Sequence record: MZ234025.1
DNA length: 64,000 bases
Direction: 5' to 3' (one strand)
DNA from: Escherichia phage vB_EcoM-172859UKE1
Shown: piece by piece, positions 43,755-56,361 of the stretch
Numbering within the stretch: the first letter of the stretch is position 1
How the letters are laid out: each line of letters begins with the position of its first letter
The notes under the pieces: model-generated
Database searches by the model: none
What the model was told of the DNA's origin: nothing
What the model saw: the letters and a program-made list of their open reading frames with translations, nothing else
Translations under genes and position numbers: made by a program

Positions 43755-43829
43755 GGCCCTGTAGCTCAATGGGAGAGCTGTCAGCTCATAACTGATAGGT
43801 AGCTGGATCGAAACCAGCCAGGGTCACCA
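43755..43829 (+). tRNA. tRNA-Met (anticodon CAT; could be initiator, elongator or lysidine-modified Ile2)
   Basis: Hand-folded cloverleaf: 7-bp acceptor stem, D arm GCTC/GAGC, anticodon loop CTCATAA, T arm GCTGG/CCAGC, encoded CCA; T-loop ATCGAAA is atypical. Confidence 0.75.
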
Positions 43830-43832
43830 ATC

Positions 43833-43909
<77 letters not shown>

Positions 43910-52879: not shown

Positions 52880-53368
52880 ATGAATATATTTGAAATGCTT
52901 CGTAATGACGAAGGTCTTAGACTGACTTTATACAAAGACACTGAAGGCTTTTGGACGATTGGCATAGGCCATTTAGTAACAAAGAACCCGTCTTTAGCCG
53001 TAGCTAAAGCTGAACTTGACAGAATGATCGGTCGTAAATGCAACGGTACAATTACCCTTGATGAGGCTGAAAAGCTATTTAATGAAGACGTTGATAAAGC
53101 CGTTCGCGGAATCTTGGGTAATGCTAAACTTAAACCGGTATACGATTCTTTAGATGCGGTTCGTCGATGTGCATTGGTCAATATGGTCTTCCAAATGGGT
53201 GTAGCAGGCGTCGCCGGTTTTACTAATTCTCTTCGTATGCTTCAACAGAAACGTTGGGACGAAGCGGCAGTAAATCTAGCCCAATCTAAATGGTATCGTC
53301 AGACACCTAATCGCGCGAAACGCGTAATCTCAACATTTAAAACAGGAACTTGGAAAGCGTATATATGA
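52880..53368 (+). CDS. e: Lysozyme (endolysin) e
   Basis: 162 aa from ATG 52880; matches recalled T4 lysozyme ([20 protein letters not shown]...TGTW). Confidence 0.95.
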
Positions 53369-53646
53369 AAACATATAGTGAATTTTTATCAGAATCTATT
53401 CTTAGCGAAGCTACTGACACATTTGCAACTAAGCTAGGTGCAGCTTTGGTTGAAGCTGAAAGTCTATTAGCACGTATTTCTGAACTTGCTAGTAAGATAG
53501 ATACTCGCAAATTTGAGCGCACTAGTGATATCGTTAAGCTTGAAGCATTGTTGCGCATGTGCGATAAACCGGAAGAAATCGCTAAGAACGGCTCTCTAAT
53601 GAAACAACGTCTTGAAAAATATATTTCAGGCGCTTCAGAAAAATAG
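53365..53646 (+). CDS. Internal-protein-like protein with CTS (93 aa)
   Basis: N-terminus [10 protein letters not shown]; located between e and denV where T4 has ipIII/ipII. Confidence 0.6.
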
Positions 53647-54244: not shown

Positions 54245-54274
54245 GTTTACGCTTAAGTATTAATATGGTATAAT
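54245..54274 (+). promoter_or_regulatory. Early promoter (near-consensus)
   Basis: GTTTAC at 54245-54250, 18-nt spacer, TGgTATAAT at 54266-54274. Confidence 0.65.
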
Positions 54275-54304: not shown

Positions 54305-54619
54305 ATGAAAACGTATAAAGAATTTATTGCAGAATCCGCCAACCAACGCGTTGAAGGCGGTTATATTTGGATTGAACAAGTTGAACCACCGAGCCGCACT
54401 TCTACAGGTAAATGGAAAATTACTGTTGATGGTCCTGGTGGTAAACGTAGGACCCTTAAAGAAATTAATGGGTACTATGAAGAAGCTCTTTCGGATGCAG
54501 GAACTTACATGATGCAAATCATGATTAAAAACCCTGAAAACCGTTTTGCAGCTAAAGTCTTCCGTCGCATCGGTAATAAACTTTATGATGCATACTCTAA
54601 AAACTTCCCTAAAGAATAA
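54305..54619 (+). CDS. Internal-protein-like protein with CTS (104 aa)
   Basis: N-terminus MKTYKEFIAE. Confidence 0.6.
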   Translation: MKTYKEFIAESANQRVEGGYIWIEQVEPPSRTSTGKWKITVDGPGGKRRTLKEINGYYEEALSDAGTYMMQIMIKNPENRFAAKVFRRIGNKLYDAYSKNFPKE

Positions 54620-54644
54620 CATAAATTAAAACAATAGGAACAAA

Positions 54645-54974
54645 ATGAAAACGTATCAAGAGTTTATCACTGAAGTTACATTATCTGCGGAACAGAAAGC
54701 TGCTATCGAAGAAGGTAAAAATCCCAAAGTAACATATAAAGTAAATAGTAAAGGCGTTTTTGATGGTTTGGTTCAAGACCCTGAATTGAAAAAAGCTCTT
54801 TCTAAAACTAATGCGTACTTTGCTCCTAAATTTAACACAGCCGGTGTACTTATTGGATTGGATGTATTCAACTCTAAAGGTGTTCTATCTAGTGCCTTTG
54901 GTTATGCCGCTAACAAAATTACCAAAGCTGCATGGGAATCCAATACCAAACAAGCTCAAAAGCCTAGAGTATAA
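54645..54974 (+). CDS. Internal-protein-like protein with CTS (109 aa)
   Basis: N-terminus MKTYQEFITE. Confidence 0.6.
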   Translation: MKTYQEFITEVTLSAEQKAAIEEGKNPKVTYKVNSKGVFDGLVQDPELKKALSKTNAYFAPKFNTAGVLIGLDVFNSKGVLSSAFGYAANKITKAAWESNTKQAQKPRV

Positions 54975-55081
54975 TTCTTGCCTAATAAAGGGAAACGCAA
55001 CCTCTCCTCATGAACGTCGAGTCCTCTGAGTGATGTACCTTTTCCAACCTGTAATAAGGTCGAGCCCAAGTGCGGTAATGG

Positions 55082-55111
55082 GTTTACATAGCGAGTCGAA
55101 GGACCTAACAT
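55082..55111 (+). promoter_or_regulatory. Putative early promoter
   Basis: GTTTAC at 55082-55087, 18-nt spacer, TAACAT. Confidence 0.4.
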
Positions 55112-55147
55112 GTGCCACGGAATGGCCCCAACCTTAAGAGAAACTAA

Positions 55148-55687
55148 ATGAGAACATTTTTAACCGGACCTTATCTATCCCTGATGAATGCTTTTACACA
55201 CCATTCTGATGCTAGAGTAGAAGAAATTTGTAAGAACGGTTATGCCCCACCGTTTGAAGACGTACTCAAGCAGTACTGTACACTTCGTTTAGACGGCGGC
55301 AGACAATCCGGTAAATCAATTGCTGTGACTAATTTTGCTGCTAATTGGTTGTATGATGGCGGAACAGTTATTGTTCTTTCTAATACTTCAGCTTACGCTA
55401 AAATTTCTGCCGGCAACATTGAAAAAGAATTTTCTCGATATTCTAGCGATGATATTCGATTCCGTTTATTTACTGATTCTGTCCGTAGTTTTATTGGTAA
55501 TGAAGGACATAAATTCCGTGGATTAACGCTTTCTCGTATTCTGTACATAATTGACGAGCCTATTAAAGCTCCTGATATGGATAAGATTTACGACATCCAT
55601 ATTAAAACAGTCCAACACTGTTGCAAAAGCAAATATTGCATCGGCGGTAATGCTCGTCCTCAATTTTTTGTGATTGGAATGCAATGA
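55148..55687 (+). CDS. P-loop NTPase of unknown function (179 aa)
   Basis: Walker A GGRQSGKS and Walker B-like ILYIIDEP. Confidence 0.6.
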   Translation: MRTFLTGPYLSLMNAFTHHSDARVEEICKNGYAPPFEDVLKQYCTLRLDGGRQSGKSIAVTNFAANWLYDGGTVIVLSNTSAYAKISAGNIEKEFSRYSSDDIRFRLFTDSVRSFIGNEGHKFRGLTLSRILYIIDEPIKAPDMDKIYDIHIKTVQHCCKSKYCIGGNARPQFFVIGMQ

Positions 55688-55992
55688 TGACAACTATTGA
55701 AGTTTTTGAGTATTGTTATAACAGCCCAGTATGCAATAAAAGGGCTCTTGTAGAAAATTATGAGATTTACCATTTTAAACCTAAACGATATCGTTTGACT
55801 AAAGGTCCGTTCGCAGGGCAGCAGGTTCTTTGTACTGCTCCTAATGCACGGTTGATGACTAGTATTCCGCATTTCAAAATGGAATTTATTGATGGGCCAT
55901 TTAAGGGATTAATAACTCAAAGTTTAATGGCGTTTAATTCCGATCCATTTTTGATTAAAGAAAAATCTTGGATAAATTTATTTTCTAATTGA
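55684..55992 (+). CDS. Hypothetical protein (102 aa)
   Basis: ATGA overlap with upstream ORF. Confidence 0.5.
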   Translation: MMTTIEVFEYCYNSPVCNKRALVENYEIYHFKPKRYRLTKGPFAGQQVLCTAPNARLMTSIPHFKMEFIDGPFKGLITQSLMAFNSDPFLIKEKSWINLFSN

Positions 55993-55998
55993 GGTTAT

Positions 55999-56361
55999 AT
56001 GAAAGCATATCAAATTCTTGAAGGTGAACATAAAGGCACTATTTATTTTGAAGACGGTACTCAAGCCCGGATTATTGTCTCTAAGACTTTTAAAGAAGAC
56101 GCTATTGTAGATCCAGAAATTTTCTACGGTTTGAATGCTCGTGAAATTGAAATTGAACATCAACCTAAAGTTAAAATTGAAGGTGGTCAACACCTGAACG
56201 TTAACGTTCTGCGTCGCGAAACTCTGGAAGATGCAGTTAAGCATCCGGAAAAATATCCGCAGCTGACCATCCGTGTATCCGGTTATGCAGTTCGCTTTAA
56301 CTCTCTGACTCCGGAACAGCAGCGCGACGTTATCGCTCGTACCTTTACCGAGAGTCTATAA
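55999..56361 (+). CDS. Autonomous glycyl radical cofactor GrcA/YfiD-like protein
   Basis: 120 aa; C-terminal ~60 residues ([60 protein letters not shown]) match recalled E. coli GrcA; host-like codon usage there. Confidence 0.85.

Follow-up and report, generated by a model that had tools for sequence, protein, structure and literature searches.

In the genome of Escherichia phage vB_EcoM-172859UKE1 (sequence record MZ234025.1), of which a stretch of 64,000 nucleotides (nt) was analyzed (the window; positions count from its first letter), a GC-rich spacer precedes vs.8, the gene of a small P-loop NTPase, and the question arises of what this spacer is. An earlier note, made from the letters alone, had proposed that it may be a remnant of acquired DNA or a structured RNA. 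Comparison with relatives in other phages indicates that the spacer very probably encodes a conserved structured RNA family on the + strand, and the best overall explanation, to which we assign a probability of roughly 0.55, would be an autonomous structured RNA module that binds a conserved factor.

54975..55147, + strand: intergenic spacer between an internal-protein gene (RB69ORF123c-like) and vs.8, 173 nt

The gap is real: the upstream open reading frame (ORF) stops at 54974, vs.8 starts with the ATG at 55148, and no ORF runs through on the + strand of the spacer, which contains stops in all three frames. Its GC content was also as atypical as the earlier note had claimed (47.4%, versus 38.1% in the window; z = 2.3), being equaled in 1.6% of 173-nt segments. 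BLASTN with the spacer, suggested in that note for phages and hosts alike, matched 1,114 phage records and none of 5,426 complete E. coli genomes. The note had held that a match to ordinary intergenic sequence of relatives, with an ORF unable to bind ATP, would refute its reading; a match to relatives exists, yet it reveals functional constraint. The 5' and 3' parts of the spacer were common to T4-like phages only, whereas the central ~40 nt were 88 to 97% identical in otherwise unrelated phages, including rV5-like Vequintavirus phages (Murica, ime, slur16, and V18) and the 45-kb phage Ivi. A longer part (query positions 25 to 104) was matched by the T4-like Enterobacter record SonariX and by Serratia phage CHI14. 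With the 47-nt core defined below as the query, 1,094 phage records were matched, 1,039 of them over at least 80% of the core; the ten commonest names include Escherichia, Klebsiella, Shigella, Enterobacter, Yersinia, Salmonella, and Citrobacter phages, and Kosakonia and Edwardsiella phages were among the matches listed. Twenty-three Vibrio records also matched, and a related query found the core in 60-kb and 130-kb Vibrio phages, so that the RNA is shared across unrelated phage families of Enterobacterales and Vibrio hosts. Among 15 diverse T4-likes, the identity profile peaked at 0.91 (positions 55049 to 55068), compared with 0.72 to 0.76 at the codons of the Walker A and B motifs of vs.8 and 0.2 to 0.4 elsewhere. 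A side observation concerns 18 core-matching records named "Campylobacter phage": nine also matched the 1.15-kb region with vs.8 and are probably T4-like genomes, and the 18 may be T4-likes filed under a Campylobacter host or a real host-range extension.

The central stretch folds, in the model derived from its relatives, into a small three-way junction, of which the covariance model (R1) found exactly one copy in the window:

55040..55086, + strand: core three-way junction, 47 nt (R1, 71.3 bits, E = 4e-22)
55044..55046, + strand: 5' strand of P1 (CCA), pairing with U55079 and G55081-G55082; G55080 is a near-invariant bulge
55047..55060, + strand: P2 hairpin, ACCU-GUAAUA-AGGU, with a GNRA-like hexaloop (GURANA) and a covarying closing pair
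55064..55073, + strand: P3 mini-hairpin, GCC-CAA-G(U)GC, in which pair 26-33 covaries
55074..55078, + strand: junction strand J3/1, GGUAA, unpaired, identical in every member seen

Copies were gathered by pattern scans of IMG/VR, and 51 distinct core sequences were aligned (alignment A2). The flanks of the invariant core varied in a compensating manner between the aligned copies. The three inner pairs of P1 were formed in all 51 sequences, each with three to five pair types; the closing pair of P2 was AU in 48 cores, GC in 2, and CG in 1, and pair 26-33 of P3 was CG in 41 and UA in 10, P3 variants including GUC-CGU-GAC and GCC-CGC-GGC. Over the whole core, 91% of cells were paired (76% in shuffled alignments), and the covariation score of 0.394 (0.112 in shuffles) was equaled by none of 500 shuffles, while sliding the pairing partners gave scores of 0.04 to 0.12. 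G-U pairs (UG in seven cases and GU in nine) were consistent with the + strand only. Members scored 47.8 to 71 bits with R1, and chance sequences meeting the whole search pattern reached at most 27 bits. Across the family, P1 has 3 to 6 base pairs (bp) with the bulged G and stacks directly on P2, the linker between P2 and P3 measures 1 to 3 nt, and the GGUAA strand leads from P3 to P1. The invariant parts were the whole P2 hairpin, including its CCU/AGG stem, the C after P2, the GGUAA strand, and the bulged G.

Among copies obtained independently of the search patterns, which comprise only the Vibrio and Vequintavirus copies found by BLAST and one paralogue, Vibrio phage 184E37.3a kept ACCUGUAAUAAGGUCGAG unchanged and had an A as the bulge. 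The paralogue (L175:159-203, 27 bits) has diverged and kept P1, P3, and GGUAA, with P2 reading ACCA-GUAA-UGGU. This plain GUAA tetraloop suggests that the GURANA hexaloop is a loop of the GNRA type, which is a classic docking module. A competing hairpin proposed by RNAalifold (GUAA/UUAC), which would compete with P1, was rejected, as it was invariant in T4-likes and absent in the other families.

In T4-like phages, the core is part of a larger fold:

54996..55093, + strand: RNA body of the T4-like long form, closed by P0 (54996-54998, CGC, pairs with 55091-55093, GCG)
55000..55036, + strand: 5' extended hairpin domain; CUCA (55007-55010) pairs with UGAG (55027-55030)
55114..55126, + strand: 3' hairpin GCCA-CGGAA-UGGC, in T4-likes only, 21 nt before the vs.8 start

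In an alignment of 16 T4-likes with this long form (alignment A3), P0 pairs covaried (CG in 10, AU in 3, GC in 2, and UG in 1; GC in 8 and CG in 5), with P0 taking the forms CGC/GCG, CCG/CGG, ACAC/GUGU, CCA/UGG, and CUCGA/UCGAG, and the pair 55000-55036 was CG in nine and AU in seven. For the whole long form, 95.3% of cells were paired, versus 86.6% in shuffles, and the covariation score was 0.209, versus 0.070, a value that none of 500 shuffles reached. T4 itself has a shorter hairpin in place of the 5' extended domain. The 3' hairpin (consensus GCCA-NGGAA-UGGC) has an invariant stem and is thus conserved but without proof by covariation. By eye, the other phage families appear to follow the same plan, an outer stem round a variable hairpin and the core, with different sequences.

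Of the two origins that the earlier note had offered, the structured RNA is therefore strongly favored by covariation, conservation at the nucleotide level, and independence of reading frame, whereas a decaying remnant is not, the RNA being the best-conserved element of the region; "acquired" holds solely in the sense that the same module recurs in unrelated phage families. Other features named in that note fared less well. Instead of three GTCGAG repeats, the spacer contains two (55016 and 55059), the site at 55095 reading GTCGAA; because the count in the window was at chance (16 seen, 14.9 expected), GTCGAG is not a repeat family, and two of the three GTCGAG-like sites fall within conserved parts of the RNA. 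The weak promoter (TTTACA-17-TAACAT, 55083-55111) matches 9 of 12 positions, and the region has 14 such sites, versus 10.9 ± 3.4 after shuffling; since this is a chance-level match that also overlaps the 3' part of the RNA, the proposed promoter carries no weight.

We examined the genomic context of the RNA in T4-likes and in the other phages. In Straboviridae, it lies between denV or internal-protein genes and vs.8, and in T4 directly after denV, ~6 kb from the tRNA cluster and in the denV-vs.8 transcript. In most T4-likes the core ends 63 to 76 nt before vs.8, in some 100 to 120 nt, and where it is duplicated in tandem ~190 nt; in four T4-like loci an internal-protein gene stands between the RNA and vs.8 (distance, 465 to 486 nt). 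By tblastn, vs.8 was confined to T4-likes (1,009 records), and because the RNA is not so confined, it occurs in phages without vs.8; a coupling to vs.8 was ruled out as a general explanation by this wider range. In Vequintavirus, Vibrio, ~45-kb, jumbo, and ~90-kb phages, the RNA was found inside or beside tRNA arrays, sometimes in tandem. A same-strand tRNA gene was present within ~1.2 kb, usually less than 600 nt away, in 18 of 26 non-T4-like loci, and five of six metagenome contigs retrieved with a different pattern carried tRNA genes, mostly beside the motif, one contig having two copies. The motif lay 46 nt after tRNA-Ser and before an intrinsic terminator in L159, 53 nt after tRNA-Glu in L042, 27 nt before tRNA-Thr in L063, between two tRNAs in L157, and upstream of a seven-tRNA array in Murica. 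An intrinsic terminator also followed shortly after the motif in L161. In Murica and Ivi, the match falls within long intergenic regions, and a sigma-70-like −35/−10 pair follows the motif, as read by eye. No protein neighbor was shared across phage families at the motif loci: the recurrent neighbors that were considered as a conserved protein partner were limited to a T4-type lysozyme (upstream, in one 45-kb group) and, downstream in four loci, a protein that we regarded as a small terminase subunit because of where it lies and because its tail is acidic. Tandem or repeated copies were found at L018:5093-5250, L022:9021-9179, L168:2386-2544, L149:830-961, and L175:159-203 plus 2460-2505. The second copy of a tandem had often diverged, with P3 shortened to GCC-CGC-GGC, a loop reading GCAAAA, or a GUAA tetraloop, and a far more diverged second copy, not matched by R1, was seen by eye in L151.

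Searches for known RNAs and for a bacterial source gave little. With Rfam 15 (4,227 models), positions 54400 to 55800 of the window yielded at E ≤ 10 only four chance-level matches, one of them to an unstructured long noncoding RNA model that overlaps the spacer on the opposite strand (E = 4.2), and none of the tRNA clan in the spacer; ten other motif loci, scanned at E ≤ 1, gave tRNAs and unrelated matches and nothing over the motif. ARAGORN found no tRNA in the spacer, the only tRNAs of the window being tRNA-Met and tRNA-Arg at 43755-43909. When 185,579 species of bacteria and archaea, each represented by one genome, were scanned with a structured pattern, eight matches were obtained, all apparently due to chance, in coding-like sequence, and without P1. 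PLSDB (72,556 plasmids) gave one match (CP057073.1:100816-100858, 97.7% identity) in a 137.6-kb "non-mobilizable E. coli plasmid," the size of which points to a Vequintavirus genome, or a phage-plasmid, entered under plasmids. An origin of the motif in bacteria or plasmids was thus considered and set aside, none in these genome and plasmid searches being convincing. No relevant description was found in the searchable literature with the core sequence, in 8 million papers and preprints, or with keywords, searches by gene name being swamped by "vs. 8" statistics and dengue "DENV," and none of the phage records inspected had an RNA annotation of the element. Within the reach of these searches, it is an undescribed, horizontally shared, covariation-supported RNA family of virulent phages, found only in phages. 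We regard the family as new because it matches no known family or mechanism; the kind of function may nevertheless well be of a known type (decoy, aptamer, or processing element, for instance).

In the reading that we prefer, the RNA would act in its own right: it would be transcribed as part of polycistronic messages or of tRNA arrays, and trimming would probably yield a stable species. A specific binding surface, built from the invariant P2 hairpin and the GGUAA junction, would recognize a single conserved partner, which could be a host factor or else a small ligand shared by gamma-proteobacterial hosts. Rather than regulating vs.8, the RNA would then serve as a decoy, a sponge, or a cofactor. 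We infer a self-acting RNA from the tandem copies, the independence of context, the co-location with tRNA genes, the absence from bacterial genomes, and the invariance of hairpin and junction; a location among tRNA genes is read as a sign of high expression and of processing by RNase P and RNase E. That the RNA is autonomous rather than a regulator of vs.8 is probable, and that it is a decoy or sponge for a host factor is a tentative proposal. A bolder version, a new class of stand-alone phage sponge or decoy RNAs that are coexpressed with tRNAs and titrate a component of host immunity or RNA metabolism, we consider doubtful. Candidate targets are a nucleotide second messenger and, on the protein side, a tRNA-targeting nuclease or an enzyme that recognizes a class II tRNA by its anticodon/variable-arm half. 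If the target were a second messenger, the RNA would be the counterpart of protein sponges such as Acb2, which we take to be the product of T4 vs.4, a gene of the same vs cluster.

Several observations weigh against this preferred reading. Many of the ~1,090 records are close kin, the independent lineages numbering about a dozen, and the search patterns themselves account for some of the invariance seen in P2, GGUAA, and portions of P3. Folding of the single spacer sequence was no better than that of shuffled sequences on either strand (z = +1.9 and +0.5), so that the evidence for structure comes from relatives alone. RNAfold preferred another helix in the window, GAGCCCA/UGGGUUU (−11.1 kcal/mol, versus +1.7 kcal/mol for the proposed core), and P1 has just 3 bp there; because of this short P1 and the unfavorable energy, the proposed fold would need P0, tertiary contacts, or a partner for stability. 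The alternative helix was without covariation (0.068, versus 0.076 in shuffles) and absent in SonariX and Ivi types. Finally, the nearly fixed distance to vs.8 in most T4-likes, with the RNA always upstream, resembles that of a leader.

The last point is the starting point of an explanation in which the RNA is a cis-acting leader of vs.8, either a riboswitch aptamer or a protein-binding translational operator, that controls vs.8, vs.7, and vs.6 (GrcA) down to vs.4 via a switch between P1 and the alternative pairing. Besides the constant position, a conserved hairpin with a GGA loop just before a weak Shine-Dalgarno sequence would suit such a leader, as would the stable GAGCCCA/UGGGUUU helix of the window, which competes with P1 and P3, and the intrinsic terminators soon after the motif in L159 and L161. 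A three-way junction in which the joining nucleotides are invariant is typical of riboswitches, as is an arrangement in tandem, and a conserved, covarying, aptamer-like fold with invariant junction nucleotides was indeed found. However, what follows the motif differs from locus to locus (vs.8, an internal-protein gene, a tRNA, a promoter, or a terminator), no downstream gene family is shared, and the RNA is present in phages without vs.8 and between tRNA genes. In four T4-like loci, an internal-protein gene intervenes before vs.8, the alternative helix shows no covariation and is lacking in some types, and in Murica and Ivi the transcript of the next gene would lack the motif because the promoter read by eye lies downstream of it. 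We therefore regard a vs.8 leader as unlikely. A self-cleaving ribozyme of a new class, or a processing signal, that cuts or marks polycistronic and tRNA-array transcripts seems rather improbable. The small size (~47 nt), the covarying stems around invariant junction and loop nucleotides, and the occurrence in many unrelated contexts, in tandem and inside tRNA arrays that need precursor processing, would all be compatible with it, and small self-cleaving ribozymes are common in phage DNA. On the other hand, the Rfam scan of the window at E ≤ 10 gave no match to hammerhead, twister, pistol, hatchet, HDV-like, or other ribozyme models, no cleavage site is indicated, and RNase P and RNase E already provide for the processing of tRNA arrays. 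The hammerhead core consists of CUGANGA ... GAAA ... UH around three stems, and the junction strands found here (0, 1 to 3, and 5 nt; C(N)A and GGUAA) are unlike it.

Two further explanations dispense with an RNA altogether. An element that works at the level of DNA (for example, a site of recombination or homing, a site bound by a protein, or an origin-like hairpin), with incidental RNA structure, would account for the same module in unrelated phage genomes, hence for horizontal movement, and for its place at boundaries of gene modules. It is very improbable, as pairing, whether Watson-Crick or G-U, is maintained by compensatory changes in each of three stems, every G-U pair would turn into an A-C mismatch on the opposite strand, the motif is co-oriented with genes or tRNAs in every inspected locus that has either called, and a homing or recombination site needs no three-way junction with a covarying outer stem. 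That the stretch is protein coding, either as an N-terminal extension of vs.8 or as a small ORF on either strand, hardly deserves credence, and for the window it is already contradicted. Its source is the reference T4 annotation (NC_000866, 64253-64912; L147:1754-2413, − strand), homologous to window positions 54990 to 55687, in which vs.8 has 219 amino acids (aa), the coding sequence begins 26 nt after denV, and the core lies within the first ~39 annotated codons. The T4 stretch is indeed open in frame with vs.8, and Pyrodigal calls a 216-aa ORF in another T4 record; the window has an ORF of 51 aa at 54956-55111 on the − strand, and on the + strand a short one that overlaps the vs.8 start by ATGA. 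Against this, stops interrupt the vs.8 frame both in the window and in RB69, with a TAA directly before the ATG in the window. Compared with the window, RB69 lacks 1 nt within P3, and other members, including close relatives, show P3 length differences of 1 to 2 nt. The core is conserved at the nucleotide level without relaxation at third positions, whereas vs.8 proteins of diverse T4-likes are often merely 34 to 46% identical to that of the window. Moreover, 17 of 18 vs.8 homologues begin at MK/RTFLT, the downstream Met (Met1, L5, Y9, and L10 are invariant), and the PHROG 1488 profile has 177 positions. On account of the family profile, these 17 homologues, and the stops in RB69 and the window, the 219-aa T4 vs.8 probably has a miscalled start that covers the RNA. 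The true vs.8 start in the window is the ATG at 55148, and vs.8 start codons in T4-like genomes should be reannotated.

The autonomous RNA that we favor can be compared with several known RNAs. Like T4 rnaC and rnaD (species 1 and species 2), it is a small structured phage RNA, those two being located with, and presumably coprocessed with, phage tRNA genes (PMC3014915), near which it too is found outside T4-likes. Neither has sequence or motif similarity to it, rnaC ending, in our own reading, in a tRNA-like T-arm where the spacer RNA is a three-way junction; homology to either was ruled out, as both lack the P2/GGUAA core. It shares with the purine and c-di-GMP-I/GEMM-I aptamers a three-way junction of ~50 to 70 nt, covarying stems, and near-invariant junction strands, as well as a GNRA-type loop on one arm and tandem occurrence, features that are well established for riboswitch aptamers. 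Unlike these, it has no Rfam match and no conserved downstream family or expression platform, and it often stands behind a gene or tRNA and ahead of a promoter. Phage RNA decoys (pseudo-ToxI, RNA anti-CRISPRs, and abiF-RNA-like elements) are likewise context-independent noncoding RNA modules of lytic phages, sometimes in tandem. They copy bacterial RNA, whereas no bacterial counterpart of the spacer RNA was found in the species, E. coli, and plasmid collections searched, nor any bacterial or plasmid repeat array of the kind expected for a type III antitoxin or pseudo-antitoxin; if the RNA is a mimic, it would thus be one of shape and not of sequence. ROOL and GOLLD are orphan structured RNAs by tRNA genes in phages and prophages, and the spacer RNA resembles them in being an orphan often near tRNA genes; it differs in size (a 47-nt core, or ~100 to 130 nt in full, versus 500 to 800 nt) and in having no Rfam match.

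Mimicry of rRNA or tRNA was also considered. GUAAUA and CGGUAA also occur in 23S helix H44 and the 16S 530 loop; rRNA mimicry was rejected, R1 scoring at best 6.2 bits (E = 2.2) on the E. coli rrnH operon, so that it is unsupported at the level of secondary structure. Mimicry of the tRNA-Tyr anticodon/variable arm (a CU-GUA-A loop plus a P3 of 3 bp and 3 nt resembling GUC-AUC-GAC of tRNA-Tyr), or of the "UGU" of TGT, is a weak lead. Most copies have UGUA or UGUG in the P2 loop, which has 6 nt where an anticodon-like loop would have 7, one tandem copy having UGCA, and the tRNA-Tyr lead is weakened by the plain GUAA tetraloop of the L175:159-203 paralogue.

T4 is among the best-studied phages, yet this RNA is more conserved than the neighboring proteins and common to ~1,090 phages. 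According to a review of posttranscriptional control in T4, neither a riboswitch nor a trans-acting regulatory RNA of this phage had been characterized functionally, and its two stable RNAs had no known role (Uzan and Miller, 2010; PMC3014915); vs.8 and denV are absent from the main text of a paper on the transcriptome and proteome of T4 (PMC9697503). If the sponge reading were true, the RNA would be the first trans-acting noncoding RNA of T4-type phages with an assigned function. With an element this short, defined key nucleotides, and the easy genetics of T4 and RB69, the question of its binding partner is directly testable.

Two elements of other kinds were noticed in phage tRNA clusters. 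In L159, a 92.8-kb contig (IMGVR_UViG_3300042010_000030) that also carries the motif, the 46-nt AGGUGGGCUUAGAAGCAGCCAUCCUUUAAAGAGUGGAGCAAGAUUC (L159:3351-3396, + strand) stands between two tRNA genes and matches positions 1098 to 1143 of the bacterial 23S rRNA model (E = 2e-4), which we take to be H43, the L11/thiostrepton loop of the GTPase-associated center; it looks like a phage-borne mimic of an rRNA fragment. In L097, a match to the Rfam abiF RNA (RF03085; 3624-3655, − strand; 45.4 bits, with a gathering score of 37) adjoins a phage tRNA-Asn gene ~480 nt from the motif and may be an antitoxin-RNA-like decoy in a tRNA cluster. Together with the motif, the abiF-RNA-like element and the thiostrepton-loop look-alike suggest that phage tRNA clusters are islands of functional noncoding RNAs, which are possibly tools of counterdefense.

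The protein encoded after the spacer is a matter separate from the RNA. The earlier note had read it as a P-loop NTPase, and this holds:

55148..55687, + strand: vs.8 homologue, 179 aa, stand-alone RecA-like P-loop ATPase (PHROG 1488)
55295..55318, + strand: Walker A, GGRQSGKS (aa 50-57); in 18 homologues, no variation at G50-K56 and either S or T at position 57
55538..55561, + strand: Walker B, ILYIIDEP (aa 131-138); D136 nearly invariant, E137 and P138 invariant

The 18 homologues compared were 38 to 91% identical. The match to PHROG 1488 (E = 2e-78) covered positions 2 to 177 of 177, with denV...vs.8-vs.7-vs.6 synteny as in RB69 and T4. The AlphaFold model is a RecA-like domain, and both the Walker A (GxxxxGK[ST]) and the Walker B (hhhhDE, located on a strand of the RecA-like sheet) signatures of P-loop proteins are present, by which vs.8 is a predicted single-domain RecA-like ATPase. 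It is not an SF2 helicase: with 179 aa it has one RecA domain and, unlike RecA domain 1 of these helicases, neither a second RecA domain nor helicase motifs beyond Walker A and B, and no Pfam helicase match exceeded the cutoff, all Pfam matches being below curated cutoffs. From the ATPase domain of a phage large terminase it differs in being a single domain without a nuclease domain. The label "endoribonuclease" carried by vs.8 and vs.7 homologues in several GenBank records (such as MK962754 JK36, MN850651 moskry, and OP870147) has no support from the profile or fold searches and appears to have spilled over from the nearby regB.

The region belongs, judged by its sequence, to an RB69-like Mosigvirus, a T4-type phage: 1.15 kb around the spacer were 96 to 98% identical to RB69, SSE1, APCEc01, and others by BLAST. 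All genes from nudE through vs lie on the + strand of the window, and the order agrees with the RB69 annotation, with nudE, e (lysozyme), an internal-protein gene, denV, and two internal-protein-like ORFs before the spacer and vs.8, vs.7, vs.6 (GrcA homologue), vs.5, vs.4, regB, vs.1, and vs after it. Three small ORFs upstream (53350-53646, 54305-54619, and 54645-54974) have MKTY(S/K/Q)EF(L/I) at or near the N terminus, which is presumably the capsid-targeting sequence of T4 internal proteins; the latter two are paralogues (PHROG 3966) with weak matches to internal head/virion protein families. The best promoter-like site of the region (54246-54274, + strand; TTTACG-17-TATAAT, 10/12, with an extended −10 TG) lies 30 nt upstream of ORF 54305 and could be the start of the transcript that bears the RNA. 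Downstream, the vs.6 ORF (55999-56361, + strand) is annotated as GrcA-type in RB69 and T4, and its C-terminal end carries what we take to be the glycyl-radical motif of GrcA/YfiD (autonomous glycyl radical cofactor).

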